From Tubiluchus corallicola (Eukaryota > Animalia > Priapulida): DNA of 64,000 nucleotides. Under the pieces are notes generated by a model. It was not told the origin of the DNA. It made no database searches and saw nothing but the letters and a program-made list of their open reading frames with translations. Every line of letters starts with the position of its first letter. Within the stretch, counting starts at the first letter, position 1. Shown here in pieces: positions 29,298-55,655 of this stretch. Made by a program: the position numbers and the translations under genes. The stretch is taken from the NCBI GenBank assembly GCA_030141605.1, contig JAQGDQ010002385.1, forward strand, positions 1 to 64,000, written 5' to 3'.

Positions 29298-30265
29298 TTA
29301 TTTACCTCCCCAAGCATCTCTTGATATTTCTGCTTTAAATGATCTGGGGCAATGATTTCAACATCCTTGCCCCAAGTGAACAGGTGCCAGCACATTTCCA
29401 TCCAACCTCCTGCCGTAAAGGTCACAAGCAATGATCCGTCGTCCTGCTCGTCAAAGACCTGTGTCGGGTGGAATTGATATTCTTTAGCACGCTCCGCAAC
29501 ATCACTTGAAAACTTCCACACAACCTTAAAAGGCTCTTCCTGAAACACTCCGAAAGACCTCTCGGCATAATTTTGCAAAGAGAATGAACGTTTGCGTGTG
29601 AAAGGCTTGTCTGTGATAACAGCTTCCTGAATATTGGAAAGGCTGAACATGCGGAAATCTTTCGCCTTATCGCACCAAGCAATCATGTAATGACGGTTTC
29701 CGTATAAAAATCCGTAAGGAGCGACAACGCGTTCGGATGTCTCTTCTTCGTGGATAGGTTCGCAAGTGATTTTAACTTTCAGGCAAGCTTTAACAGCATT
29801 GCGGAGTGTGTTTAAAACTTCCCCTTTAATCTTTAGTTTTGGTCCCGGACGCATCGCAAAACCTTCCGCCTCAAGCAAAGCTTCCAGGTCTGTTTCCAGT
29901 TTGGCTGCTTGATCGGCACGCACAATGCTTTTGATCTTGATCGCAAGGTTTTCAAGGATGTCTGCCGGCTCTTCCAAGTTATCACGACGCAAGCGAGTAA
30001 TAGCAGCCTGAAGCTCTGCAAGCTCATCCGCATCAAAGCGAGTAAGCGAAGAGAATTTGCCGGATGGAATACGCCAACGCTTATTACGCCCTTCTTTAAT
30101 CTCAATCATCTGAGGCACAAGTCGCCCAATCACATCACGCATACGTTCAGCCGTACGACGACTAACGTTAAACTCCTGTGCAATGTCTGTTGTTGAAACG
30201 CCCTCGGCAGTTGATTGCATCCAGATCGCAAGTTTTAGAAGATTTTCAGCTTGTTCAAAGCGCAT
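29264..30265 (-). CDS. HTH-WYL-WCX transcription regulator, DriD-like
   Basis: VSRRTAERMRD..PQM..KRWRIPSG resembles the recalled Caulobacter DriD N-terminus; WYL core R.VAPYGFLYGNRHYMIA...FRMFSL..I; CWHLFTWG. Confidence 0.9.
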   Translation of the reverse strand: MRFEQAENLLKLAIWMQSTAEGVSTTDIAQEFNVSRRTAERMRDVIGRLVPQMIEIKEGRNKRWRIPSGKFSSLTRFDADELAELQAAITRLRRDNLEEPADILENLAIKIKSIVRADQAAKLETDLEALLEAEGFAMRPGPKLKIKGEVLNTLRNAVKACLKVKITCEPIHEEETSERVVAPYGFLYGNRHYMIAWCDKAKDFRMFSLSNIQEAVITDKPFTRKRSFSLQNYAERSFGVFQEEPFKVVWKFSSDVAERAKEYQFHPTQVFDEQDDGSLLVTFTAGGWMEMCWHLFTWGKDVEIIAPDHLKQKYQEMLGEVNKWKQKLNVLRP

Positions 30266-30346
30266 AACCTGTTCTCTATAAATTAAGCTGTTTTCTTTAT
30301 TTTTAAGACAATCAAGGTCAAATGTCTAGCAAAAAGATAAAACAGT

Positions 30347-30361
30347 CGTCCATGAGTGTCG
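30347..30361. promoter_or_regulatory. Third DriD-type box in the WYL/hsdM divergent region
   Basis: CGTC-CATGAGT-GTCG; 13 of 15 nt identical to the box at 25295. Confidence 0.6.
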
Positions 30362-30380
30362 TTTGTTGAGTGCTTTTTAC

Positions 30381-30409
30381 TTGCAATTTCGAAGTTTTTC
30401 TTTTATGTT
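30381..30409 (+). promoter_or_regulatory. Putative sigma70 promoter of hsdMSR
   Basis: TTGCAA-17 nt-TATGTT. Confidence 0.4.
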
Positions 30410-30499
30410 CTAAATTAAAATTATGTTCCTTAATCTGTGAAGGATTAAATGCATATGTGAGTGATAACCAAAGACAGAAAAAACATAGGAAGCAACAGC

Positions 30500-32047
30500 A
30501 TGACAAGTACTCAACAACGTGCGGCACTGCAGCGCCAGATCTGGCAGATCGCCAACGATGTACGGGGCGCAGTAGATGGCTGGGATTTTAAGCAGTATGT
30601 ACTCGGTACGCTCTTTTATCGTTTTATCAGTGAAAATTTTGCCAGCTACATCGAAGCCGGTGATGACAGTATTCACTATGCAGAACTGGACGATGGGGTC
30701 ATCACTCCGGAAATCAAAGATGATGCCGTTAAAACCAAGGGCTATTTCATCTACCCCAGCCAGCTGTTTGCGAATATTGCAAAGGGTGCAAATACCAACG
30801 ACAGTCTGAATACCGACCTCGCCGCCATCTTTACCGCCATTGAAAGCTCTGCCAACGGTTACCCGTCGGAAGTGGATATTAAAGGCCTGTTTGCCGACTT
30901 TGATACCACCAGCAACCGCCTCGGAAATACCGTAGCCGACAAGAACACCCGTCTGGCCGCTGTGCTCAAAGGGGTGGCCGGGCTTGACTTCGGTGATTTT
31001 CACGGCAGCCAGATCGACCTGTTTGGCGATGCCTACGAGTTCCTGATCTCAAACTATGCCGCCAATGCCGGTAAATCCGGCGGTGAGTTTTTCACCCCGC
31101 AGCATGTTTCAAAACTGATCGCACAACTTGCTATGCATAAACAAGAACATGTAAACAAGATTTTTGACCCTGCCTGCGGTTCCGGTTCATTGTTGCTACA
31201 GGCTAAAAAACATTTTGATGCCCATATTGTTGAAGAAGGATTTTTCGGTCAAGAGCTTAATCATACTACATACAACTTGGCACGCATGAATATGTTTTTG
31301 CATAATATAAACTATGATAAGTTTAATATTCAGCTTGGGGATACACTGATCAATCCACACTTTGGCGATGACAAACCTTTTGATGCAATTGTTTCCAATC
31401 CACCTTATTCAGTGAAATGGATTGGATCAGATGATCCAACATTGATTAACGATGATCGTTTTGCACCTGCTGGCGTACTTGCCCCTAAATCCAAGGCAGA
31501 CTTTGCCTTTGTTCTCCATGCATTAAGTTATTTATCAAGCAAAGGACGTGCAGCAATTGTTTGCTTCCCGGGTATTTTTTACCGTGGCGGAGCGGAACAA
31601 AAAATCCGAAAATACTTGGTTGATAATAACTATGTTGAAACCGTGATTTCACTTGCACCAAACTTATTCTATGGAACAACTATTGCCGTAACGATTTTAG
31701 TTCTGGCTAAAAATAAGCCTGATACGAACGTTCAGTTTATTGATGCCAGTGGTGAAGAATTCTTTAAAAAGGCAACCAATACAAACATTATGCAGGATGA
31801 TCATATTCAAAAAGTTATGGATATATTCGACAGCAAAGAGAATGTTGCTCATACTGCTGAATCTGTGCCATATGAAAAAATTGTGGCAAATGAGTATAAT
31901 TTGTCGGTTAGCTCTTATGTTGAGGCAAGAGACACGCGTGAGGTTATTGATATTGCAAAATTAAACACCGAGATAAAAACAACGGTTGGAAAGATAGACC
32001 AGCTCCGCAATGATATTGACGCGATTATTACGGAGATCGATGCATGA
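30500..32047 (+). CDS. hsdM: Type I RM methyltransferase subunit (type IC)
   Basis: [20 protein letters not shown]; probable start 30500. Confidence 0.97.
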
Positions 32048-33294
32048 GTAATATGAGTTTTATAGAAAAGTTATTGGGCGGTGCAGAGGTTGAATGGTTG
32101 CCTTTGGGGGAAGTAACTCAATACGAACAACCGACTAAGTATCTTGTAAAAAACAAGAATTATAGCGATGAATTTGAAACACCTGTTTTGACAGCAGGAA
32201 AAACTTTTATTCTTGGATACACGGACGAAACTAACGGAATTAATAAGGCATCAGAAAATCCTGTAATCATTTTTGATGATTTTACTACTGCTAATAAATG
32301 GGTTGACTTCGACTTTAAAGCAAAATCATCCGCAATGAAGATGATTTCGTCTAGTAATAAAACTAAGTTTATTCTAAAATATGTGTATTATTGGATGAAC
32401 ACTTTACCGAGTGATTTGATTGATGGAGATCATAAGCGTCAATGGATCAGTAATTTTTGCAACAAAAAAATCCCCATCCCATGCCCTGATAATCCAAAGA
32501 AGTCGCTTGAGATTCAAGGGGAAATTGTCCGAATTTTGGACAATTTCACGGAGCTTACAGCGGAGCTTACAGCGGAGCTTACAGCGGAGCTTACAGCTCG
32601 TAAAAAACAATACAACTACTATCGCGACCAACTCCTTACTTTTGATGAGGATGAAGTTGAATGGAAACCTTTGGGTGATGTTGGTGATTTAGTGCGAGGT
32701 AATGGATTGCCAAAAACAGATTTTACGGAGAATGGCGTGCCAGCTATCCATTATGGTCAAATTTACACCTATTATGGCCTATCAACAAAATCTACTATTT
32801 CGTTTGTTTCTCCTGAAACTGCAGAAAAATTACGGAAAGTAAATACTGGTGATGTTATTATAACAAACACAAGCGAAAACTTCGAAGATGTAGGAAAATC
32901 TTTGGTCTATCTAGGTGAACAACAAGCTGTTACTGGAGGGCATGCAACAATATTTAAGCCTAGCAAAAAGATTTTGGGCAAATACTTCGCCTATTTTACT
33001 CAAACTGCAACATTTGAAAAATTAAAAAGAAAATATGCAAAAGGAACAAAAGTTCTTGATGTTTCTGCAACTGACATGGCGAAAATAGAAATTCCCATCC
33101 CATACCCAAACAACCCCGAAAAGTCTTTGGCTGAACAAGCCCGCATTGTTGCAATACTCGATAAGTTTGATACTCTTACAAACTCGATAAGCGAAGGGCT
33201 TCCACACGAGATTGAACTCCGCCAAAAACAATATGAATATTATAGAGATTTACTGCTAAATTTCCCAAAACCTGAGGATCAAAAATATGCCTGA
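32044..33294 (+). CDS. hsdS: Type I RM specificity subunit (EcoR124I family)
   Basis: Two TRDs, IPIP..SLEIQ.EIVRILD conserved regions, TAEL repeats, [10 protein letters not shown]. Confidence 0.96.
32549..32597 (+). repeat. 12-bp tandem repeat (GAGCTTACAGCG, ~4 units) encoding three TAEL repeats
   Basis: Seen directly in the sequence. Confidence 0.95.
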
Positions 33295-36200
33295 ACAAAC
33301 TAAACCTATCGCAGAGTCAAAAAACTTTATCGTCCTTGATAAATATACCAAAGAATGGGAGATTGCTGAAAGCTATCAAAGTGAAGCAGATTTGGAGCGT
33401 GAGCTTATCCGTGATTTAGTTAATCAAGGTTATGAGTTTTTACCTGAACTAACAACCCCAGATGCGATGCTTTCTAATGTGAGATTGCAGTTGCAAGCTT
33501 TGAACAACGTAATCTTTTCTGAAGGTGAATGGTTACGATTTGTTGAAACTTACTTAGATAAACCCAGTGATAATCTGATCGATAAAACCCGTAAAATCCA
33601 TGACGATTATATCCATGATTTCACATTTGATGATGGTCGCATTCAAAACATCTACCTGCTTGATAAAGCAAATATCTCTCGCAATAAGGTGCAAGTAATA
33701 AAACAATTTGAACAAACCGGCACACATGCAAACCGCTATGACGTAACAATATTGGTTAACGGTTTGCCATTGGTTCAGATCGAACTTAAAAAGCGTGGTG
33801 TTGCTATCCGTGAGGCTTTTAACCAAGTCCACCATTATAGCAAAGAAAGCTTTAACTCTGAGCATTCTTTGTTTAAATATTTGCAAATGTTTGTTATTTC
33901 CAATGGTACGGATAGTCGTTATTTTGCCAACACAACAAAGCGTAATAAAAACAGCTTTGATTTTACGATGAATTGGGCAAAGTCAGATAATAACCTGATT
34001 AAAGATTTAAAAGATTTTACGGCGACTTTCTTTCAGAAAAACACCTTGCTCAATGTATTGCTTCATTACTCTGTTTTTGATGTTAATGATACATTATTGA
34101 TTATGCGTCCTTATCAGATTGCGGCTACTGAGCGTATTTTATGGAAAGTCAAAAGTTCGTATCAGGCTAAAAATTGGTGTAAGCCTGAAAGCGGCGGATA
34201 TGTGTGGCATACAACAGGTTCCGGAAAAACTTTGACCAGCTTTAAAGCTGCACGTTTGGCCACAGAACTTGATTTCATTGATAAGGTGTTTTTTGTGGTT
34301 GATAGAAAAGACCTCGACTATCAAACCATGAAAGAATATCAACGTTTTTCACCTGATAGCGTGAATGGTTCTGATAGCACTGCGGGGTTAAAGAAAAATC
34401 TTAGTAAAGATGATAACAAAATCATCGTTACCACAATCCAAAAGCTCAACAACCTGATGAAAAGTGAAAATGATTTAGATATTTATAACAAACAGGTGGT
34501 GTTTATTTTTGATGAATGCCATCGCAGCCAGTTTGGTGAGGCTCAGAAAAACCTAAAGAAGAAGTTTAAGCAGTTTTATCAATTTGGTTTCACAGGTACG
34601 CCAATATTTCCACATAACGCTTTGGGATCTGAAACAACAGCCAGTGTTTTTGGACGTGAGCTACATTCCTATGTAATTACCGATGCTATTCGTGATGAAA
34701 AGGTTTTGAAATTTAAGGTGGATTACAACGATGTTCGTCCGCAATTTAAAGCGATTGAATCGGAGCGAGATGAGAAAAAATTGAGTGCTGCTGAAAATAA
34801 AAAAGCCTTTTTGCATCCTGATCGTATTCGCGAAATATCCGGGTATATCTTAAATAGCTTTCGTCAAAAAACCCATCGTTTGCAAGGAGGCAACAAGGGC
34901 TTTAATGCTATGTTTGCCGTTAATAGTGTGGATGCTGCTAAGATGTATTATGAAGCCCTGAATTCATTGCAGGCTGATAGCGAGAAATCATTAAAGATTG
35001 CTACAATCTTTTCATTCAATGCGAACGAAGAACAAGATGCCGTTGGTGATATTCCTGATGAAAGCTTTGATGTTTCCGCAATGAACAGCAGCGCCAAAGA
35101 ATTCTTAAGTGCAGCTATTAAGGACTATAATGCATTTTTTAAAACCAATTTCAGCGTAGATAGCAAAGGTTTCCAAAATTATTACCGTGATTTAGCAAAG
35201 CGTGTTAAGTCACAGGAAATTGATTTGTTAATTGTGGTGGGCATGTTCTTAACCGGATTTGATGCCCCGACACTGAACACCTTGTTTGTCGATAAAAACC
35301 TGCGCTATCACGGTTTGATGCAGGCATTTTCCCGCACCAATCGCATCTATGACGCAACCAAGACATTCGGCAATATCGTTACTTTCCGGGATTTAGAGCA
35401 GGCTACTGTAGATGCCATTACTCTCTTTGGCGATAAAAACACCAAAAACGTCGTGCTTGAAAAAAGTTATAAGGAATACATGGATGGGTTTTGTGACGCA
35501 ACAACAGGGGAAGCACGCCGTGGTTTTGTAGATGTCGTGGCAGAATTGGAGCAACGCTTTCCAAACCCTGAGACAATAGTTAAGGAAGCAGACAAGAAAG
35601 CCTTTGCCAAACTCTTTGGTGAATATTTGCGCGTAGAAAATATACTTCAAAACTATGATGAATTTGCCAGTTTAAAAGCATTGCAAGCAATTGATCAAAA
35701 CGATGAGATTGCGATACAAGAATTTAAAGAAAAGCATTATTTGAATGATGATGACTTGGAGGTATTAACAGCTATTAAAATTCCTGCCGAACGTAAAATT
35801 CAAGATTATAGATCCGCATACAATGATATTCGGGACTGGCTACGCAAAGAAAAAGCTTCCGATGAGCAAGAAAAATCCTCTGTAGATTGGGAAGATGTTG
35901 TGTTTGAAGTCGACTTGCTTAAATCTCAAGAGATCAATCTAGACTACATATTAGAGCAAATATTTGAGAATAATAAAAAGGTAAAAGACAAGTCTGAGCT
36001 CGTTGAAGATGTGCAAAGAATGATCCGCTCCAGCCTTGGCAATCGAGCTAAAGAGAGTTTGTTGGTTGATTTTATTAACCAAACAGATCTTGATAAAATT
36101 GGCGATAAAGCAAGTGTGATTGATGCTTTCTTTACTTTTGCTCAAAGTGAACAAAAACGTGAAGCGGAGGAATTAATCAGCTCTGAAAGCTTAGATAAAG

Positions 36201-36388
36201 AAGCCGCAAAGCGTTATATAACTGCTTCAATTAAACGTGAATTTGCGACTGAAAACGGAACAGAGTTAAACTCTATATTGCCTAAAATGAGTCCTCTAAA
36301 CCCAGAATACCTAACCAAGAAACAAACCGTTTTTCAAAAGATATCTGCATTCGTTGAAAAATTTAAAGGCGTAGGCGGAGAGATTTAA
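33287..36388 (+). CDS. hsdR: Type I RM restriction subunit (EcoR124I-like)
   Basis: [17 protein letters not shown] nuclease motif, [35 protein letters not shown]. Confidence 0.97.
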
Positions 36389-36415
36389 GGAATATGAGCA
36401 ACTGATGGAGCAGAA

Positions 36416-37699
36416 ATGGCAGCACATCATACAACAAAAGAACAACGCCGAATGCTTGCAGACAGGATGAAAAATCCTGATGATGAGTTAAAGCTCGTTA
36501 TTGTTAGGGATATGTGGCTGACAGGGTTTGATGCTCCTTCTATGCATACGCTTTATATTGATAAGCCTATGAAGGGACATAATCTTATGCAGGCAATCGC
36601 TCGGGTAAACCGTGTTTATAAGGATAAGCCGGGTGGACTTGTTGTTGATTATCTCGGTATTGCTTCGGATTTGAAAAAGGCATTGTCCTTTTATTCAGAT
36701 AGTGGCGGAAAAGGTGACCCTGCAATTGCTCAGGAACAAGCCGTTAGCATGATGTTGGAAAAACTGGAAGTGGTCTCTCAAATGTTTCATGGCTTTACTT
36801 ATGAGGATTATTTCAATGCGGACACTTCGACAAAACTTTCAACAATCCTTGCTGCTGAAAACCATATTTTAGGGCTTGAAAATGGAAAGAAGAGATTTAT
36901 TGATGAAGTATCCGCTCTTTCACAAGCTCTGGCAATTGCCATTCCACATGAACAGGCAATGGATGTTAAAGAAGAAGTCGCTTTCTTCCAAGCCATAAAA
37001 GCTAGGTTATGTAAATTTGATAGCAATGCATCCGGAAAAACAGATGAAGAAATAGAAACAGCGATAAGACAAGTTATTGATGAAGCTCTTGTTTCAAATC
37101 AGGTGGTGGATGTGTTTGATGCTGCCGGCATTAAAAAGCCTGATATCTCAATTTTATCCGAAGACTTCTTGCTTGAGATTAAGGGGATGGAACATAAAAA
37201 TGTTGCCCTTGAGACATTGAAGAAACTTCTCAATGATGAAATCAAAACCCGCACGAAAAAGAACCTTGTGCAGAGCCGATCTTTGATGGAGATGTTGGAA
37301 AATTCTATTAAGAAATACCATAACAAAGTGCTGACCGCAGCGGAGGTTATTGATGAGCTGATAAAATTAAGCAAAGATATTCAAAAGATGGATAAAGAAC
37401 CGGAAGAAATGGGATTATCCGAGTTTGAATACGCTTTTTACACAGCTGTTGCAAACAATGACAGTGCAAGAGAGTTGATGCAACAAGATAAACTGAGAGA
37501 GTTAGCAGTTGTTCTGACTGAAAAAATCAAACAAAATGCATCTATTGATTGGACGATTAAAGAAAGCGTGAAATCAAAACTAAAGGTGATCGTAAAAAGA
37601 ACACTACGTCATTTCGGCTATCCACCAGACATGCAAAAACTTGCAACTGAAACTGTTTTGAAACAGGCTGAATTAATCGCAAATGAAGTGATAGGATAA
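36416..37699 (+). pseudogene. hsdR: C-terminal half of a second, different HsdR (DUF3387-type tail)
   Basis: Has MWLTGFDAP and [10 protein letters not shown] plus DWT...L...GYPPD tail, but lacks nuclease, Walker A and DEAD motifs. Confidence 0.85.
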
Positions 37700-46670: not shown

Positions 46671-48086
46671 TTATTGAAAGATTTCTTCTAGGTAGTCATC
46701 GATCATGCGAGAGCGGAATGTGATATGCTCTGCAGGATAAGGTGGTGTAAAGTCAAAGTCGAAAGAGACCTTGCCTTGTGAGATTTGATCCGGTGTATTT
46801 AATTCAGGATCAGCCCAACACTTACCTCCAATGATTGCCCCGATTGCTTTGAGATAGCGAAGGTAGTTGTTCACACCTTCTGTTACGTCCTCAACATAAG
46901 TCTTAGTGATATTGCGATCGACTGCCCATAAATGAGCCTTAAGCAGGCTGTCATTGATCATATCAGCCGTTCTGCGGACAGATATGAACATCCACTTCGG
47001 ATCAGCTGAAGTTGTTCGATTGCCCCACAAACGATAGCCGTCCTGTTGAATAACAGTTGCCACTTCATTTTCATTAAGATAATTAGCAACGCAATTGGCA
47101 TCCCCAAGCGTGAAATCAATAGGCTTGGATAGACCGACAATGCCGTTGATCGTCATGTTTGAAGGTGACCACCAGAAGCCGCGTTCGTTGTCAGACTTGG
47201 CAATCAATCCTGCAATACGGGCAGATAACGGATGTTCATCAATAGTATCAGTTTTGGCATTATAGACCTTTGCCCAAGGATAGGCCGTATAAAGACGTGC
47301 TGATCCCCAATCTTCACGATAAGTAATAGCTTCTTCCTTTGTACCGTTCGGACAGTCCGCAATGATCACTGCACGCATACGTTCTGCAATTCCCATTAAT
47401 TCCGCAACAACTGGATTTGCCAATCCACTTGGGCGATCGTGTGTAAAGCCCGGTGCTATTAAAATACGAGGCTGAACTTTAGCTTCTGATTGAGAGGCTA
47501 ATAAGCATTGAACGCCTTTATAAGCTCCGGTTGTGCCGTCAACACCGCCGATAACATCTCCGCTTGTAACCTTTGTACCGTCCAAATATTTATAAGACAC
47601 ATTTACACTTGCACCTGCAGTGATAGCACCGCCGTCAATGCGGGTAATTACACCGCTTGCATGATCCACTGTGTAATCTGTGTTTTCTGTGTAAACAGAG
47701 CTGTCCGACGGGTTGATCACGGATACATCTGAAATTGTGTAATGTTCTAAATCGATTAAATCCTTCTCATCAAAGCTGTGCGAGGCAGCACTTACTTGTG
47801 TTTGATGTGTGGCATCACTTGGATCGGCCACGTTGATCACCACAACCATGGCTCCTGCCTGATCGAAGATCGCATCAAGTGCATCAGGTATGGTAAAGCC
47901 GGCAGTTGGTTCCCCGAATAGCTTCACAGCTTCCGTTCTTGATCCCAAGATTAAAGTTGGTTTATTAACAGGCCCCTTCGGAGCTGTTCCGACAAGCCCG
48001 ATAACTGAGGACTTGACCGTTTGTATTGGACGTGCTCCGTCATCGATTTCGATAACTTCTACACCATGTAAAAAATGATCCGGCAT
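46671..48086 (-). CDS. Tail sheath protein (P2 FI-like) with inserted domain
   Basis: FLHGVEV, IGLVGTAP, GFWWSPSN, GYRLWGNRT, FTPPYPAEHI. Confidence 0.96.
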   Translation of the reverse strand: MPDHFLHGVEVIEIDDGARPIQTVKSSVIGLVGTAPKGPVNKPTLILGSRTEAVKLFGEPTAGFTIPDALDAIFDQAGAMVVVINVADPSDATHQTQVSAASHSFDEKDLIDLEHYTISDVSVINPSDSSVYTENTDYTVDHASGVITRIDGGAITAGASVNVSYKYLDGTKVTSGDVIGGVDGTTGAYKGVQCLLASQSEAKVQPRILIAPGFTHDRPSGLANPVVAELMGIAERMRAVIIADCPNGTKEEAITYREDWGSARLYTAYPWAKVYNAKTDTIDEHPLSARIAGLIAKSDNERGFWWSPSNMTINGIVGLSKPIDFTLGDANCVANYLNENEVATVIQQDGYRLWGNRTTSADPKWMFISVRRTADMINDSLLKAHLWAVDRNITKTYVEDVTEGVNNYLRYLKAIGAIIGGKCWADPELNTPDQISQGKVSFDFDFTPPYPAEHITFRSRMIDDYLEEIFQ

Positions 48087-48138: not shown

Positions 48139-48882
48139 TTAGTATTTTATGATCCATGTTAACGCTAGCCACGGGGGCATGTTGTTATGGGGTATATCCG
48201 CTCCTTCATAGTCCGTCCATCTGTCAGGATATGTACCATCACTTGCTCCATTAGGTCCGTCATTTGATGAGCCGGCATCAGATAAGATTGTTCCCATATA
48301 ATGTCTATGCTTAGGCAATTCCTCTATGCTTAGCTTATGTTTTTCTTCTCCGGCAGTGCTTCCGAGAATTCGGTTTGTTAATCCTGCCCCTTGATCGGCT
48401 CCAAGAATAAAACGGCTTCTTGCATCAGGAATTGTTAGCTTTTTCCAAGCACCCCAATCTTCAAGTGCAGAACTTCCGCGTCCGCCATCAACAGAATTCT
48501 GCTCGTCACTAATGTTATTCCAAAGGAATTCATATAGAGTTTTGTATTCATCTCCCATCTTATCTGCGCTTGAACCAAGAGAGCCAATCGTTTGACCGTT
48601 TAGCAGAAGAAAGCCTTCGGGTGGTGTTTGTCCTGCATAGGAAAAGACAACGCCTGTTGGGCAAGCAGTTAAAAATATATCTTGGGCAGATATTTTTGAT
48701 AAAACTGTTTCCTTTGAAACATTGCTTAAATCTTCACGGGCAAGAGGAAAACCTCCATTTGTAATACCATCGTGAACGACAAGAGTTTTCTTTGTGGTAT
48801 CCACCGTGATTTCACGATTGGCTCCCACAAAGGTCTCATGCTGAACGGTTGTTCCTCCGCGTCTTTGTACTTGTACTGCCAT
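48139..48882 (-). CDS. Tail fibre: Mtd_N-like N-terminus plus tail-collar domain
   Basis: Probable start 48882: VQRRGGTT...EITVDT.K..LVVHDG..GGFPLA; collar P.G.V..YAG..PP.GFL..NG, IPD.R.RF; tip HNNMPP..L.WIIKY. Confidence 0.8.
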   Translation of the reverse strand: MAVQVQRRGGTTVQHETFVGANREITVDTTKKTLVVHDGITNGGFPLAREDLSNVSKETVLSKISAQDIFLTACPTGVVFSYAGQTPPEGFLLLNGQTIGSLGSSADKMGDEYKTLYEFLWNNISDEQNSVDGGRGSSALEDWGAWKKLTIPDARSRFILGADQGAGLTNRILGSTAGEEKHKLSIEELPKHRHYMGTILSDAGSSNDGPNGASDGTYPDRWTDYEGADIPHNNMPPWLALTWIIKY

Positions 48883-48883
48883 T

Positions 48884-49258
48884 TTATAATCCCAGTTCTG
48901 TTTTCTTGTCTTTACCTTCCTGAACGATTCCATCAACAAAAGAGCTATATTCCGCATCTCCTGTACGAAGGGCTTTGAGTTCATCGTTCAAGTTGTACTT
49001 TTCACGGATTTTATAAATGGTTTCTTCATCAATCCGCTTACATACATGACTTTCTTTTTTGATAAGCTCTTTTAAAATCAAGCCGTCTTCCGTTGTTAGA
49101 TCGAGAGCTTCAAAGTCTTCAGAAAACACAACACTGTCCGTTGCAGACAAATATTGATTTCCTTCGATTACCCCAAGATCGATAATTGTTTCTTCTCCTG
49201 ATGTTTGTGGAAAAGCAGGTTTTAAGGTCGCTTCAAAGCGATATATTTTATTTGTCAT
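48884..49258 (-). CDS. Putative tail fibre assembly/accessory protein
   Basis: Follows the RCC1 protein; IREKY..NDE....KTELGL; AGGAG RBS. Confidence 0.5.
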   Translation of the reverse strand: MTNKIYRFEATLKPAFPQTSGEETIIDLGVIEGNQYLSATDSVVFSEDFEALDLTTEDGLILKELIKKESHVCKRIDEETIYKIREKYNLNDELKALRTGDAEYSSFVDGIVQEGKDKKTELGL

Positions 49259-49288
49259 TTTAGATCTCCTGTTTGGTGGGGCTAGCCC

Positions 49289-50980
49289 CTAAAATAGCAT
49301 TGTGTAAAGAGCGTCGTTTCTATGCAGATTGGCAGATTGCGTTCCGCACTGGCCATAAGTGTTATGTCCTGAAGACAGAACACGACCGTCTTCGGTTAAG
49401 GCATAAAGCGTTCCTTCCGAAGAATTTCCTGCAAAAACAGCGTCGATTATCCTGATGAAAGGACTTTCAAGAGGATTTTTTATGCGTGTAAATACAGGGT
49501 TTTCAGCAGTAAAAGCATTTCCGATTCCAAGCTGACCGTTACCGTTATAACCAACACCCCACAATCTTCCTTCCTTATCAATGATAACTATTTGTCCGTA
49601 TGAATAACTGCCTCCCAAGATAACCTTGTCAATATTACCCTGAAACAATGCATTTATTTTCAAAGGAGCATTACGGTGAGTTGTATCTCCATGACCGAGA
49701 ACACCGTAGCTATTGAATCCCCAAGTCCAGAGTTCGTCGTTAATATCAAGAGCGACGCTATATCCGTAAAATCCTCCTCCTGCATAAACATTCTTGATGA
49801 CAGGCAAACTGCCGCTTATAAGGGTAAAGCTTGTACGGTTTGTGGTATCGCCGACACCAAGCTGTCCGTACCCGTTATCACCTGCGGAATAAACCGTTCC
49901 ATCATTAAGAAGCACCAATACGTGGGTATTAACCTGAGCTCCTCCATCAGTAGCATCTCCTGCATTTGCAAAAACCTGTTTTACATTCGAAAGGTTTGTA
50001 ACCTTGGTCGGGCTGTAACGATGTGTCGTATCGCCCTGTCCGAGTTGCCCCTGCGTATTATATCCCCAAGCCCAGAGTTCATCATTTCCATCAATAGCAA
50101 AAACGGAAGTATAGTTTGAAGTGCTCACAGAGACCTGTTTTACTCCGGTTAAGTTTCCACATCTGACAGGAACGTAGCTTACCGTTGTTGTTCCGTTTCC
50201 AAGCTGTCCATAAGCATTGTATCCGCAGGCATAAAGCTCGCCTGTTGTTGAAATGAAGTAAACTGTTGAAGCACTCCATACACAGTCAGTAGCACAGATG
50301 ATTTCCTTAATCTGAATGCCGTTATCAACAAACCAGTCAATTCTTATTGCATGATGACGGTTTAATGTATCACCGTGTCCCAGAACGCCCTGTTCATTAT
50401 GTCCCCATGAATAAACCTGTCCGTCTTCTGTCAAGGCAAAGAAACTCGCATAGTTTCTGTAAATTGCCTTAAAAGGTGCAGTAGGTGGTTTATCAGGATT
50501 AACAGGAACAGTTTGTGGTAAATATGTATGGTGATTATTTGTATCGGCATTTGAGTAATTCAACGCACGACCGATTGCTCTCATTGTGCCGTCATTCATC
50601 AAAAATGCGGCAACGTGCTGATTACCATAATTTCCTCCTTGCATAAGTTTTTTTACGGTCATTCCTGGACGACTTTCTTGGCTTCCCCAAGCAGGCAAAC
50701 CGTTTTTGATACGAAGAAAAGAGTTTTCAGCACCTGCATTAAGAGCAACGGACTCTGTGCCGTTATGAATAACAATATCACCAATCTGTGAGAGCTGATC
50801 CGTTCCTGCTGCAAATAAATTCCAGTAGAATGGATCAGTCGGCGGATATCCCATGCCGTTCTGCACGCAGATGTATGTGCTTCCTGAAAAGCTGACTAAA
50901 TCATCCTTTTCATATGCTTCGGCAGGATTGTAAGCTCCTTTCCATACCAGTTTTATTTTTCCAAGATTAAGAGTTGTCAT
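49289..50980 (-). CDS. RCC1-repeat beta-propeller fibre/receptor-binding protein
   Basis: Repeated G.vy.WG.N..GqLG.GdT units; N-terminal NLGKIK..WKGAY...Y..DD.V module. Confidence 0.85.
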   Translation of the reverse strand: MTTLNLGKIKLVWKGAYNPAEAYEKDDLVSFSGSTYICVQNGMGYPPTDPFYWNLFAAGTDQLSQIGDIVIHNGTESVALNAGAENSFLRIKNGLPAWGSQESRPGMTVKKLMQGGNYGNQHVAAFLMNDGTMRAIGRALNYSNADTNNHHTYLPQTVPVNPDKPPTAPFKAIYRNYASFFALTEDGQVYSWGHNEQGVLGHGDTLNRHHAIRIDWFVDNGIQIKEIICATDCVWSASTVYFISTTGELYACGYNAYGQLGNGTTTVSYVPVRCGNLTGVKQVSVSTSNYTSVFAIDGNDELWAWGYNTQGQLGQGDTTHRYSPTKVTNLSNVKQVFANAGDATDGGAQVNTHVLVLLNDGTVYSAGDNGYGQLGVGDTTNRTSFTLISGSLPVIKNVYAGGGFYGYSVALDINDELWTWGFNSYGVLGHGDTTHRNAPLKINALFQGNIDKVILGGSYSYGQIVIIDKEGRLWGVGYNGNGQLGIGNAFTAENPVFTRIKNPLESPFIRIIDAVFAGNSSEGTLYALTEDGRVLSSGHNTYGQCGTQSANLHRNDALYTMLF

Positions 50981-50991
50981 GTTTTTCTCCT

Positions 50992-51324
50992 TTATAAAAT
51001 TGCGATAAGTTCGCCATTATTGTTGATGTTGAATGAAATGCTTGTTCCTGCCAAAAACCAGTCTATATAATCCTTTGCATTGAAATCCCCGTCTCCCGTA
51101 TCAAGAAAAAGATTGCCGATTGCGTCCAAGCGAAATCCGTGAAATACGGTAGCTCTTGTTACATTGCTTAAATCCTCCCTTGCCAGAGGAAAGCCACCGG
51201 GCGTTACACCGTCATGAACAACAACGGTTTTTTTATCCGTATCAATGGTAGTTTCCCTTGATGCTCCGACAAAAGAATCATGTTCATCGGTTGTTCCGCC
51301 TCTGCGTTTTACTACTGTTGTCAT
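50992..51324 (-). CDS. Small fibre adaptor with Mtd_N-like domain
   Basis: VKRRGGTT..H..FVGA.RE..IDT.K..VVVHDG..GGFPLARED, homologous to the N-terminus of 48139-48882. Confidence 0.75.
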   Translation of the reverse strand: MTTVVKRRGGTTDEHDSFVGASRETTIDTDKKTVVVHDGVTPGGFPLAREDLSNVTRATVFHGFRLDAIGNLFLDTGDGDFNAKDYIDWFLAGTSISFNINNNGELIAIL

Positions 51325-52028
51325 GTTAAGCCCTCATAGTCATAGTTAAACCCGCCCCGTGCTAAATCGCACCGCAAGAGCGGTACATTCTCTGCTGCAA
51401 AAGGATTGTCTCCCGTGATAAATCCGTAATCGGTAATCGTTCCATCAAAATACTGGTTGTGAATACCGACGGGACCAAGTCTGTCCGCTTCCAGAAGTCC
51501 CTGAAATGCACCGCTATGAGCTTCAACACTTGTTTCATGGTCAAATATGGCATCTGCCATTACATCATTGATATCCTTGACGGTGACCAGAACAATGCTT
51601 GGATCAATAATCAGGGTGACTTCTGGCGTTGCTGAAAAACCCAGAATCATCCGAATGTATAAATCTTTGCCTGATCCGCTCGTAAGTTCCGGCTTGAAAG
51701 TTTCGGGATATTTGCCGATGGCAAATAAATCACCGTCGCTGTCAAATATGCCTACCTCCCTAATATGAAACTCTCCGACATCTTCAGGAATAACAGCCTC
51801 GATGACCAGTTGATTGGGATGATTTGTATCGGTATAAACCTTGTTAATGTTTATACGAAAAACCTCATTTTTAAGTGCGGTCATATCACCGCTCGGATCA
51901 TACATAAAACCAAGCCCGTCCCCAACTGCCAGATCGGAAAGCTGCACTTGCTGAGATCCGGTAGTATGAGAGGCAGCTTCTTTTGCAAGCCCTATATCCG
52001 TGATGATTGTGTAATATTGTTGTGCCAT
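51321..52028 (-). CDS. Baseplate-anchoring tail fibre protein (P2 gpH N-terminal/DUF3751-like), short
   Basis: TIITDIG, AVGDG, L.NEV.R, IPEDVG.F.IREVG.FD..G.L.A, YPETFKP..SGSG. Confidence 0.88.
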   Translation of the reverse strand: MAQQYYTIITDIGLAKEAASHTTGSQQVQLSDLAVGDGLGFMYDPSGDMTALKNEVFRININKVYTDTNHPNQLVIEAVIPEDVGEFHIREVGIFDSDGDLFAIGKYPETFKPELTSGSGKDLYIRMILGFSATPEVTLIIDPSIVLVTVKDINDVMADAIFDHETSVEAHSGAFQGLLEADRLGPVGIHNQYFDGTITDYGFITGDNPFAAENVPLLRCDLARGGFNYDYEGLT

Positions 52029-52050
52029 AATCGCTCAGTTCCACTTCGCT

Positions 52051-52113
52051 CCAGAAGACAGATGACAGAAACCAGAAGTTAGGTGTTCTGTATTCTGTCC
52101 TCTAATTTCTGAT
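52051..52113. repeat. Inverted array of 7-mer repeats forming a hairpin
   Basis: CCAGAAG ACAGATG ACAGAAA CCAGAAG, short loop, TTCTGTA TTCTGTC CTCTAAT TTCTGAT. Confidence 0.75.
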
Positions 52114-52652
52114 TACTGTTTTGGATATATCGTTGTAATTTCACCTGAGATGCAGCCAATACCTATGAGGGGCATTTGGGTTTTTGTCGTTAAAAAAGCC
52201 TGCAAACTTTCAAGATGTGATCTTGCATTTTTTGAGGACATAATCACGGCAAACACTTCATCCATTTTCATGATGTCAAAGCCGTCCGTTACAATATCTA
52301 TAAACACACGAAAGGTGTATGGATTGCCACCGTAATAAAACCATTCTTCAACTTTTACATCATCAAATTGAAAAGCATTTAATGCCCGTTTGAGAGCTCC
52401 GATTGTGCCTTTGCGTTTATGCACCTCAAGACTTGCCTTGATTACCTCACGACGTATTTCCTCTGCCCAGTTTTCGTTCCACACATCCACCGACATTTCC
52501 CATGCAAGCCATGGAAGAATATGAGCAGGACAGGTGTCAGGATTGGTAACATATCTGTTTGGTGAACCAAGTGCAGCCATCCGTTTGGCAAATATCACCT
52601 CCAAATCTCTTTGCAATTTTGTTGCATTGGGAGGAAGAAGCGTTTCAGTCAT
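52113..52652 (-). CDS. Tail protein I (P2 gpI)
   Basis: LLPPNAT, CPAHILPWLAWE.SVD.W, H..KGT.GA, KNARSHL. Confidence 0.93.
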   Translation of the reverse strand: MTETLLPPNATKLQRDLEVIFAKRMAALGSPNRYVTNPDTCPAHILPWLAWEMSVDVWNENWAEEIRREVIKASLEVHKRKGTIGALKRALNAFQFDDVKVEEWFYYGGNPYTFRVFIDIVTDGFDIMKMDEVFAVIMSSKNARSHLESLQAFLTTKTQMPLIGIGCISGEITTIYPKQ

Positions 52653-53715
52653 AGTCCACCATTGTTGTCAGTTTGATATTTGTGCAGTAAGGAGCTTGGA
52701 TATTTGTAGTTTCAATATCTTCTGTAGGTGAAATGACCTTCACTTTTTTTACTCCCTTAGTATGAAGTGCGTCATGAATACCGGATACGGCAACCAATCC
52801 GCCGACAGTGTGGCGTTCGCTTACATACTGCTCCAAAAGTTCTCGTCCTTCATTTTCAACAACGGCAAAGGACGGTCCGGGATAAACTGTTATTTCCGCT
52901 TCAATCTCATAAGGGATAATTTCCGCAGGCTGAACCGTTACCATATCGGTTAACGGACGTTTATCCTCATCGTTGAGTTCCAGCCTGACCAACTTCAGAA
53001 CATCCGCCCTCTCATAATCAAGAAGCAGTTCGGCATTTTCTGAAATAGGACTTCCCGAAGTACGCAGCAAAAGCGAATTATCTTTATCAAAGACGTAATC
53101 AACCCCGACAGTATATGTAATATTGCCGTCCACATCCTTAACTGTAAGATTGTTGATATCCTTACCGTCTACAACAACGGCATTGTTTTTAAGTTGAACT
53201 TCAACATTTGTTAAGTTTTCCCGTTCAAGAGGTGTTCCGTCACCATCTGTTCCCAGCAGTGTTACTATTACTTCTCCGGAGTTGGGGCTGTAAACATCCA
53301 CCGATTTTACCTTTACACTGGCAGAAAGAGCATGGAATATGTATGCACCGATCGGTCCTGCTGTTGAATATCCTTCCAAAGAGAGTTGGCAACGATAACG
53401 AAGCCTGTCGTCATCTTCCCCTTCCAGTCTTTCAACGCCATAACCTGTCGCTTTATGATCAAGATCCGACCCGACAGCATAAGCCAGCAGATTGGCTTTT
53501 GCAGCTTCATTGATACGATGCCTCATCAGCATTTCACGATAGGCCGTACTTTGCAGCACTACAATCGCAGGATCGCTTTCTAGTAAAGCATCATAGCCTG
53601 GGTCTTTGCCGATAAAGGCGGAATAATATTCTTTTAAAAGTGTTTCATAATCGATATTTTCAACAATCTCAGGAGCAGGAAGTTTTGATAAATCTATAAC
53701 TGTAAAACCACTCAT
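52645..53715 (-). CDS. Baseplate J/gp47 protein with inserted domain
   Basis: IDLSKLPAPEIVE, LESDP, STAGP.GAY.FHALSA, RPLTD.V.V, QAPYCT. Confidence 0.93.
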   Translation of the reverse strand: MSGFTVIDLSKLPAPEIVENIDYETLLKEYYSAFIGKDPGYDALLESDPAIVVLQSTAYREMLMRHRINEAAKANLLAYAVGSDLDHKATGYGVERLEGEDDDRLRYRCQLSLEGYSTAGPIGAYIFHALSASVKVKSVDVYSPNSGEVIVTLLGTDGDGTPLERENLTNVEVQLKNNAVVVDGKDINNLTVKDVDGNITYTVGVDYVFDKDNSLLLRTSGSPISENAELLLDYERADVLKLVRLELNDEDKRPLTDMVTVQPAEIIPYEIEAEITVYPGPSFAVVENEGRELLEQYVSERHTVGGLVAVSGIHDALHTKGVKKVKVISPTEDIETTNIQAPYCTNIKLTTMVDYD

Positions 53716-53975
53716 TAAATACCTCCGTATTCAACTCCATGTCCCGGTTGTTCGGCAATAAAACCGAAATCTTCAAACTGCGATGCGACTTCCGATGTCA
53801 TGCCATAATCAATAACAGGAGATACAAACTGCACCTGACGAATGGAATCATCCGCCATTCTGGCATACATCACTCCGTCACTTGCATTCAATGCAAGTTC
53901 ACCTACAATCAGATCACTAACTATCGGCTTCTTACCGGGAAGAATAGAGGTTTTATGTTTGATAGTGTTTGTCAT
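53715..53975 (-). CDS. Small fibre-adaptor-like protein
   Basis: IKHK...P...L..GELALN..DG..Y N-terminal module; C-terminal DYG/DFG/EYG motifs. Confidence 0.6.
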   Translation of the reverse strand: MTNTIKHKTSILPGKKPIVSDLIVGELALNASDGVMYARMADDSIRQVQFVSPVIDYGMTSEVASQFEDFGFIAEQPGHGVEYGGI

Positions 53976-53992
53976 GTCTTTTCACTTATGAA

Positions 53993-54928
53993 TTAAAATG
54001 TTCCGCCATCAACAAGGCTGTTATTGCCAAGGAAATCAACACCTTCCTGTGCTGCTTCAACGCCGTTCTGCATTGCATTGATACGCATCATTGTTCCTGC
54101 TGCAAAAGCAGTTAAATCCGTGCCTACACCACCACGGTTAAATGGAAGCAATCCGCTAACGGTATTTTGATTGTCAAGTGGCGTTGCTCCCCAAACAGCA
54201 TCTCCTGCCCCTTGTGATATCAGGCTTTGTCCTGCCGTATTGGAGGATTTAACCGCAACTTTGTCAGAAGCATTTGTGTGAATGGTTGCATCATCAGAAT
54301 CAACGGAGACAATATCTCCTGATACAATAATACCTGCACCGCCTGTTACACCTGATAATCCGCCAAATCTATCCCAGGTAATACCATCATAGCGTTGCCA
54401 TGAATTACTGTTTTGATCCCAGACCAAAGCACCTTCACCTGCTGAAGAAATATCATAAACAACCTGAAATTCAGTACCGTCAAACTCAACTATATCGTTG
54501 TCTTCAACACCAATGATCGTGCCAAAATTGGCATGCAGATTTGTAGTATCGGTAATTAAATAACGATCACCTGTGGCAGGAGAAGAACCCGGATCAAGTG
54601 TTGCATCTGCCTGTTTTGCTAAAACATCCTTTTGAAAGTCCAGCCCCGTAATTGACTTGTCTACCTCACCACGGACATAGGCTGTTGTGGCAATTTTTGT
54701 GGAATTATCACCTGTACTTGGTGTGGGTGCCGTCGGTGTTCCAACAAATGCCGGATCAAGCAGTCTTGCAAAATTGCTTCCCGCAATATCAATAACTGCA
54801 CCACTGGTGTTTTTGACATATAGGATCAGATCGGCAAGGTTAATTGCCAATTCACCATCCTGCAATTGTGCTGGTGTTGGGACAGCTCCCTGTGTTAAAC
54901 TCCGTTTGATTTGAATAATGTTAGCCAT
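53993..54928 (-). CDS. Fibre-like protein (T4 distal-fibre-type N-terminus)
   Basis: IQIKRS...P....L.DGELAINL.D; GTPTAPT..KIATTAYV fibre repeat; ends LVDGGTF. Confidence 0.7.
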   Translation of the reverse strand: MANIIQIKRSLTQGAVPTPAQLQDGELAINLADLILYVKNTSGAVIDIAGSNFARLLDPAFVGTPTAPTPSTGDNSTKIATTAYVRGEVDKSITGLDFQKDVLAKQADATLDPGSSPATGDRYLITDTTNLHANFGTIIGVEDNDIVEFDGTEFQVVYDISSAGEGALVWDQNSNSWQRYDGITWDRFGGLSGVTGGAGIIVSGDIVSVDSDDATIHTNASDKVAVKSSNTAGQSLISQGAGDAVWGATPLDNQNTVSGLLPFNRGGVGTDLTAFAAGTMMRINAMQNGVEAAQEGVDFLGNNSLVDGGTF

Positions 54929-54956
54929 AATTATGCTCCTTTAGAATGGGTTAAGA

Positions 54957-55208
54957 TTAAAAAACTCCTCCGTCTACATCCGTTTCAAGAGGTTTGGTCT
55001 GCCATTTTGCTTCTGCTTCGTTGTAATAGATGATGTGTCCGTCCTGCTTTTCGGATAAATCCATTCCGGCAAGTTCTTCGAAACTGAAAGAAAGATGACC
55101 AGCAATGCCAATGACAGAAACCCGAACCGTTTTGCCATTCTGAAAAATAGGCATCTCTTCCGTGCCGTCAAGCACATCTGCTTTCGGTAATTTGTTAATT
55201 CTCGGCAT
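54957..55208 (-). CDS. Small fibre-adaptor-like protein
   Basis: RINKLP.A..LDG.E..PI.Q.G.T N-terminal module; ends DVDGGVF. Confidence 0.6.
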   Translation of the reverse strand: MPRINKLPKADVLDGTEEMPIFQNGKTVRVSVIGIAGHLSFSFEELAGMDLSEKQDGHIIYYNEAEAKWQTKPLETDVDGGVF

Positions 55209-55217
55209 CGTTATTCC

Positions 55218-55655
55218 TTAATTGAGTAGCGGTCTTTCATCTTCCGTAAGAATTGGTTCGCCCGTTTCGGTAAATACATCGTACCGCCTGATGTCTTCTC
55301 CTTTTGGAATTTCTCCGCCTTTTATTTCTATACCTTCAAGGGCAATGATTTTTCCGCTTACAAGATAGCGTCCTTCCAAATCTAGGGTAAGTTTACCCTG
55401 TGTTATGTTTTGTACGGTTACCTGAATCACTTCAAATCGTGGCTCCCAGTTATAGAGGGCTTCCACAACATCCGAATAAATCTCCGCAATCAAATCACCG
55501 TTTAATGGATTATCAATCCTTTCAAATAGCCTCGAACCGTAATCCCTACGCATCACTCTTGAACCGATTGGCGTGCTTAAAATATTGGCAATAGACTGTT
55601 TTAGATGAGCAATTCCTTCCAGATGCTCCCCGGTCTTTGTATTCATTCCTCGCAT
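55218..55655 (-). CDS. Baseplate wedge gpW/gp25 with C-terminal extension
   Basis: HLKQSI..IL.TP.GSRVMRRDYGS, WEPR; extra tail VFTETGEPILTED. Confidence 0.9.
   Translation of the reverse strand: MRGMNTKTGEHLEGIAHLKQSIANILSTPIGSRVMRRDYGSRLFERIDNPLNGDLIAEIYSDVVEALYNWEPRFEVIQVTVQNITQGKLTLDLEGRYLVSGKIIALEGIEIKGGEIPKGEDIRRYDVFTETGEPILTEDERPLLN

Follow-up and report, generated by a model that had tools for sequence, protein, structure and literature searches.

Candidate plug-and-socket joints between separately encoded fibre proteins in a P2-like prophage tail operon

Known fibre joints and their counterparts in the operon

Separately encoded receptor-binding proteins of phages can be joined by a short peptide and a small domain. 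In the Klebsiella phages KP32, K11 and KP34, and in K1-5 and G7C, docking of receptor-binding proteins through a branching domain and a conserved peptide has been shown experimentally, and in the Klebsiella podophages it is the second protein that carries the docking peptide, at its N-terminus (PMC6872550; PMC13352976). In phage T4, the N-terminal region of gp37 is bound by trimeric gp36 (review, PMC3004832). The Mtd protein of BPP-1 sits at the fibre ends, with two trimers per fibre according to cited cryo-electron microscopy work (PMC2408619), and has been described as a hexamer (PMC3567102). In crAss001, whose tail hub contains THA (gp38) and THB (gp39) (PDB 7qoj), residues 67–107 of the hub protein gp39 extend into the neighbouring hub, and each hub holds residues 1–26 of the trimeric fibre protein gp22 (PMC10172136). 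Here we describe a P2-like prophage tail operon in a 64,000-nucleotide stretch of the Tubiluchus corallicola assembly (hereafter the window), in which four types of C-terminal motif are paired with four types of N-terminal module.

The operon lies entirely on the minus strand and encodes a lambda-type portal, tape measure, sheath, gpV, gp25, gpJ, gpI and gpH (fibre-related genes in Table 1). The four pairs, written as upstream motif and downstream module, are a threefold TExG repeat with the RINKLP module, DGGxF with a gp37-N-type module (IQIKRS and relatives), two or three D[YFLW]G motifs with Mtd_N, and FxVxxGxL with the NLGKIK module; labels such as RINKLP and gp37-N-type were coined in this analysis or in the preliminary description of the locus. 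Six proteins end in one of these tags, and five of the six are encoded directly upstream of a gene with the matching module. Among the 108 open reading frames (ORFs) of at least 80 residues in the window, a C-terminal motif occurs in seven: the six chain proteins and a flavoprotein-like gene at 304–1260, where the match is due to chance. All genes, motifs and modules listed in the preliminary description are present on the minus strand. Its gene order needs two corrections: gpJ follows the 86-residue gene, and a 124-residue gene separates the RCC1 and collar genes.

A T4-like joint appears to recur in the chain that begins at gp25. The N-termini of the 311- and 86-residue proteins are homologous to that of gp37: the IQIKRS module matched 1142 phage records, most of the 40 listed, T4 gp37 included, being annotated as long tail fibre distal subunit, and the N-terminal module is 46.7% identical to the T4 gp37 start (E 1e-5). 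The 311-residue protein also matches phrog_1699 at residues 4–48 (E 1.4e-14) and the start of T4 gp37 by tblastn, and its fibre repeat matches the tail fibre 9k09_A. T4 gp36 ends in QDFGYY, upstream of the IQFKRS..GELAINL start of gp37, and DFGYY fits the D-x-G-x-F/Y pattern of DGGVF and DGGTF; the available part of PMC3004832 leaves this motif unnamed. Unlike in T4, two such joints would follow one another here, along a chain that gp25 anchors to a P2-like tail. Sequence searches of the PDB with the gp37-N profile returned nothing significant.

The second chain resembles the Bbp9–Mtd arrangement of BPP-1. Both modules of the Mtd_N type are true Mtd_N domains; that of the 110-residue adaptor scores 43.4 bits for PF18454 against a cut-off of 26.3, matches residues 1–54 of Mtd (1yu0, E 8e-18) and has the Mtd_N fold by Foldseek (E 6e-6). 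In BPP-1, as here, D-aromatic/L-G tags are found on the upstream gene: Bbp9 contains YDFGSI, IDYGDL and a terminal ADLGGIA, and Mtd trimers are carried on the fibre ends. The prophage differs in that the proteins starting with Mtd_N are a putative adaptor and a collar protein, not a C-type lectin, and in having two Mtd_N genes and two tag-bearing stalks. No family match to a BPP-1-type diversity-generating retroelement (C-type lectin, reverse transcriptase, Avd, template repeat) was found on the Mtd_N proteins or the scanned window neighbours, and DYG tails gave nothing significant in a PDB sequence search. In two other loci, Avd-like and reverse-transcriptase-like genes were seen by eye downstream of Mtd_N chains (L068:5980-9391; L073:5980-10320), so tips diversified by such elements may hang on like adaptors. 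The IQIKRS and Mtd_N modules may themselves be distant relatives that bind related D-x-G-x-hydrophobic tags. In hhalign the former aligns with the Mtd_N/hyaluronidase N-terminus (probability 52%, E 1.5e-4), and the structural matches are too weak to argue for or against a Mtd_N-like fold (Foldseek E 1.7; gp37-N model against 1yu0, VIA Z 2.9, root-mean-square deviation 3.5 over 45 residues).

A possible counterpart of the first joint is found in crAss001. The RINKLP profile has a single match in the PDB, to gp22 residues 28–52 (E 8.9e-5), and a RINKLP-type module was recovered among 152 crassvirus ORFs (E 3.8e-8). The single-copy gp39, encoded ~18 kb from gp22, ends in TED repeats (ITEDSILRSTEDDNFRVEA) with TE at positions −18 and −10, the commonest TExG register (15 of 23); gp25 of the window ends in VFTETGEPILTEDERPLLN, with the register −17/−9. 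Among five crassviruses the tail is kept in four, with the −18/−10 register in three of the five, a variant in one and none in one, and the module is clear in two and weak in one (cr85_1, E 0.006); it was not found in the incomplete stretch of IAS or in cr128_1, the latter having no tail and, in the 40 kb fetched, no module. In contrast to crAss001, the tag is carried here by gp25 of a contractile tail, and gp39 lacks the glycine and gp22 has its additional hub anchor at residues 1–26. A PDB sequence search with TExG tails found nothing significant.

The operon shares with the Klebsiella systems the joining of separately encoded proteins by a short peptide and a small domain. The polarity is reversed for three of the four pairs, the peptide being C-terminal on the upstream protein and the socket N-terminal on the downstream one; only the NLGKIK strand follows the Klebsiella layout. 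In addition, four pair types are used in series. A sequence-level scan of gpH past residue ~170, where ~65 residues are left, gave no Pfam or PHROG match to a T4 gp10-like branching domain. Docking of peptide to domain is already known, and these four motif–module pairs were not found in print: a literature search that reached neither most subscription papers nor any supplements returned no paper naming them, and the motifs are not described in the available parts of PMC12143355, 10.64898/2026.05.12.724579 and PMC12379486.

Pairing of C-terminal motifs with N-terminal modules across viral loci

Module profiles were built from the modules of the window, and the pairing was scored by how the gene upstream of a module ends. 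For each of the Mtd_N, NLGKIK and IQIKRS modules, 80 viral loci were used (the best 80 of 245, 309 and 355), together with at least 120 TExG loci fetched by a DNA pattern for TEDGxxxxTE. The resulting table, from which the window itself was left out, holds 1838 adjacent gene pairs from 376 loci, redundant pairs having been removed at a threshold of 50% identity between upstream tails. ORFs below 70 residues without a module, module matches past residue 60, pairs with gaps above 150–200 nucleotides and four loci that were duplicates from a single contig were excluded.

Each motif is concentrated upstream of its own module. DGGxF/DFGYY ends 37 of 63 genes upstream of the gp37-N (IQIKRS) module, compared with 3 of 74 upstream of other modules and 8 of 798 upstream of other genes. 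The corresponding fractions are 27/46, 0/91 and 10/798 for D[YFLW]Gx[ILV] and Mtd_N, and 9/15, 0/122 and 3/798 for FxVxxGxL and NLGKIK. Because ORFs were called by length, the 798 comparison genes include false ones, and the contrast across modules is the fairer one. Reduction at 35% identity leaves 32/55 for DGG, 22/37 for DYG and 7/14 for FxVxxGxL. The module-first count for TExG (9/13) is biased by the route through which these loci were fetched, and a motif-first test was therefore run instead: a KISxL-type start comes next in 16 of 25 non-redundant TExG genes (8 on the profile alone), compared with 50 of the 1343 genes that lack the motif. Co-occurrence of motif and module across phages, which the preliminary description had proposed as a check on docking, is thus borne out for all four pairs and on unrelated carrier proteins. 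Stripped of their tags, the carriers belong to 9, 13, 18 and 4 unrelated families, the NLGKIK carriers being few in kind. A chance origin of the pairings is ruled out by these statistics together with the ORF count of the window.

Related operons keep the chain to varying extents. One relative (L081) retains it up to the RCC1 gene, and another (L168) retains the gp25-side chain with a different, 62-residue first adaptor that still bears both ends. In a related prophage (L247), a 114-residue gp25 without the extension lies directly before gpJ, the gp25-side chain is absent and gpH is a 497-residue protein without an adaptor, so that tag and partner are jointly missing in this single case.

We consider it probable, at roughly 0.75, that the tag–module pairs constitute a portable plug-and-socket code joining separately encoded fibre pieces. 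The pairing on unrelated carriers and the T4, BPP-1 and crAss001 joints uphold this part of the preliminary description, while the interface itself is something we infer. That the motifs lie where genes adjoin, in a region with known exchange and a gene order that keeps modules adjacent, could also be expected if they were recombination handles or split-gene remnants that favour cassette swaps and form no specific interface. That origin is very improbable, given that unrelated carriers share the motifs as conserved peptides, that modules are nearly never internal to proteins (2/159, 0/114 and 0/21 for three of the four types), and that tail and module are both kept in crAss001 despite the distance between the two genes. 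The tails might instead be self-contained trimerisation or capping ends and the modules folding helpers, with any contact to the next protein lying elsewhere. The structures nearest to the gp37-N model, at a non-significant Z of 4.4, are trimerisation domains of collagen XV/XVIII, and the CBM5/12-like domain in the NLGKIK region could bind sugar instead; a capping role would leave unexplained both why the kind of motif goes with the kind of module that starts the following gene and why a tag is present on gp25, a non-fibre protein, and we regard it as improbable.

Several observations weigh against the plug-and-socket code. The cognate motif is absent upstream of 26 of 63 gp37-N, 19 of 46 Mtd_N and 6 of 15 NLGKIK genes; variants that narrowly miss the pattern, intervening spacer genes and miscalled ORFs account for some of these. 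DGG also stands upstream of Mtd_N in 3 of 46 cases, and the code is therefore not strict. The motif patterns were written after the loci had been viewed, and the 8-residue TExG spacing is forced by the search pattern. Within the window, the DYG motifs of the 86-residue protein have no adjoining partner, the next gene being gpJ; in three other loci (L177, L183, L190), 116-residue proteins of the same design lie directly upstream of Mtd_N genes. In crAss001, the gp39 tail is scored by the TExG profile at 0.6 bits, below significance, and only gp22 residues 1–26 and gp39 up to residue 107 are modelled, the available part of PMC10172136 describing no tag–module contact. IAS has the tail, and no module was found in a stretch covering only part of its fibre genes; the match in cr85_1 is weak.

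Docking in strict gene order was ruled out: gpJ follows the 86-residue tail, and spacer genes split pairs in T4-like loci.

Further pairings were seen in the fetched loci. Genes ending in [RF]I[ND][VI]Y[ND]AAGTLLN are followed by a QLKRSE subtype of the gp37-N module, a fifth pair located in adaptor clusters right upstream of the neck genes of T4-like phages (L177:1977-4126, L183, L190, L201, L245). A doubled DGG..GGA tail precedes N-termini of the IQ[LI]RRDT type (L073:5980-8602; L377:7449-10844), including crAss001 gp24 followed by gp25. In the Vibrio podophage 172P1 (L084:2040-5276), three successive genes ending in IDGG[VAS]Y lead to a tailspike-like gene and are chained into two gp37-N-type genes. 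The TExG repeat is also grafted on gpI-like wedge proteins (L274, L291) and T4-like neck proteins (L268, L280, L294, L326), so further virion sites may carry fibres.

Proposed assembly and the meaning of repeated motifs

Baseplate gp25 is a single-chain protein present in six copies, and fibres of this kind are trimers. With these properties, the gp25 tail would grip a trimer of the 83-residue adaptor through its three 8-residue TExG repeats. DGGxF tails, one per chain as in T4 gp36–gp37, would then link the 83-, 311- and 86-residue proteins in that order, and Mtd_N sockets would receive the D-aromatic-G tags offered by the 86-residue tail and by the gpH stub. Of the two Mtd_N proteins, one would itself be a collar-type tip and the other an adaptor, its hairpin end taking up the N-terminal NLGKIK strand of the RCC1 protein. 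In the virion there would thus be two tips and two stalks, one a side fibre on gp25 and the other formed by gpH, with fibre pieces that are probably trimeric and joined end to end. The two Mtd_N modules are identical at 40 of 55 residues, from which it follows that either tip could be carried by both stalks, as far as sequence can indicate. The RCC1 joint probably adds a strand to a sheet rather than a peptide to a socket, since it combines an NLGKIK strand and CBM5/12-like domain with a partner modelled as two hairpins.

The preliminary description further held that repeated motifs produce branches, allowing gp25 and gpH each to display two alternative tips. Repetition differs among the motifs. 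DGG is single in 36 of 38 pairs. Of 27 DYG tails, 18 carry two motifs and 6 carry at least three, with spacings of mostly 13–15 residues. In 21 of 24 multi-DYG loci the fetched stretch contains one Mtd_N gene, so the repeats do not signal two different tips. Multiplication of a single tip is plausible for DYG only, and the claim is too general for DGG, TExG and FxVxxGxL: TExG is held at a fixed distance from the C-terminus, which fits symmetry matching, and the FxVxxGxL pair is modelled as two hairpins of one unit. BPP-1 fibres do bear two Mtd trimers, and three DxG sites occur in Bbp9; a trimer displaying six tags could accommodate two trimers, and the similarity of the two Mtd_N sockets would suit two tips on a stalk. 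On balance, it seems rather unlikely that every repeated motif is a branch point that gives each stalk two different tips. The DYG repeats may instead raise avidity, match symmetries or, as in BPP-1, present one tip in several copies, and the TExG repeat is better read as one chain filling the three sites of a trimer, its carriers probably being single chains.

A broader generalisation is offered tentatively. C-terminal plugs and N-terminal sockets may form a small and largely orthogonal code common to tailed phages, with stoichiometry set by repeat number: three repeats would let a single-copy protein (gp25 or the crAss001 hub protein) grip a trimer, one repeat would join trimer to trimer, and with two repeats per chain a single fibre would carry two trimers, which would account for the 12 Mtd trimers of BPP-1. 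This prophage would use four code words at once, the sheath initiator gp25 would have become a second fibre anchor, and either tip would fit both stalks. If correct, such a code would give a residue-level account of Mtd attachment to the BPP-1 fibre, of the gp36–gp37 grip in T4 and of the role of the crAss001 hub protein tail, bringing three model phages under one principle. It would also make tiny ‘hypothetical’ genes readable as adaptors and fibre topology predictable from sequence, and it suggests that gp25 can anchor fibres.

Genes of the operon and its surroundings

Coordinates of the genes are collected in Table 1. The gp25–gpJ interval holds three small genes, and gpH is followed by the 110-residue Mtd_N protein, the RCC1 protein, the 124-residue protein and the second Mtd_N protein. 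Two starts differ from the preliminary description: gp25 is likely to begin at the ATG at 55655, and the collar gene probably at the ATG at 48882.

Table 1. Fibre-related and adjoining genes of the tail operon, listed in the direction of transcription (window coordinates)
Gene product	Position	Strand	Features
gp25/gpW baseplate wedge protein with C-terminal extension	55218..55655	-	PF04965, 59 bits; TExG repeat 55221-55277
83-residue putative adaptor	54957..55208	-	RINKLP (KISxLP) module 55101-55208; VDGGVF plug 54960-54977
311-residue fibre segment	53993..54928	-	gp37-N-type module (IQIKRS) 54773-54928; fibre repeat; DUF2793-like part; VDGGTF plug 53996-54013
86-residue putative adaptor	53715..53975	-	gp37-N-type module (IKHK/GELALN) 53826-53975; IDYG, DFG, EYG at 53718-53813
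gpJ baseplate wedge	52645..53715	-	PF04865
gpI tail protein	52113..52652	-	PF09684
gpH stub, 235 residues	51321..52028	-	Phage_tail_fib PF12571, residues 1-149; DYG..DLA..DYEG tail 51324-51434
110-residue putative adaptor	50992..51324	-	Mtd_N socket PF18454; two-hairpin FxVxxGxL unit 50995-51144
RCC1-repeat protein, 563 residues (likely tip 1)	49289..50980	-	PF00415, PF25390; NLGKIK strand 50936-50980; CBM5/12-like domain
124-residue protein, no known family	48884..49258	-	internal IIDLG[VI]I 49166-49186
Second Mtd_N protein, collar and Gp10_C-like (likely tip 2)	48139..48882	-	PF18454, 49.5 bits

The 83-residue protein gave zero matches in Pfam and PHROG searches. Used whole as a homologue query it returned just one match, and an atlas look-up gave only unnamed viral clusters; an alignment of three RINKLP sequences retrieved three loci. 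The 86-residue protein retrieved one locus as a query, its PHROG matches are tail-fibre N-termini, and its three D/E-aromatic-G motifs are spaced by 13 residues.

The gpH stub consists of a baseplate anchor followed by the tail TDYGFIT...CDLARG...DYEGLT and has no receptor-binding domain. The last of these motifs (DYEG) deviates from the D-aromatic-G consensus. The same tail layout is found upstream of Mtd_N genes in two other loci (L012, L003). The 110-residue protein ends in FRLDAIGNL...FNINNNGEL, and an adaptor of like design is present in L035. A single-chain model (mean pLDDT 77) shows its two Fx(L/I)xxxGxL units as a pair of hairpins, which may be a single domain. In the RCC1-repeat protein, for which receptor binding would be the expected role, the N-terminal NLGKIK profile matches the chitin-binding domain 1ed7 (E 7e-6). 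For the second Mtd_N protein, the matches to PF07484 (Collar) and PF21939 (Gp10_C-like) are both under the Pfam cut-off.

The 124-residue protein has seven homologues, and IIDLG[VI]I is kept in all eight aligned sequences. It is possibly an assembly chaperone; its motif, adjoining the collar Mtd_N gene, could be a third DLG plug or merely a hairpin of the chaperone fold.

Two relatives were found in alphaproteobacterial assemblies, no more than a hint as to the host of the prophage. By eye, gpJ and the sheath protein (46671–48086) contain a similar insert of ~75 residues (YTxxxDYxxD...R..G..I) that splits their Pfam matches, and gpJ of the related prophage L247 is shorter. Elsewhere in the window, type I restriction–modification genes (HsdM, HsdR) lie next to a helicase at 27291–37699, where a 427-residue ORF (36416–37699) resembles, again by eye, a second C-terminal part of HsdR.

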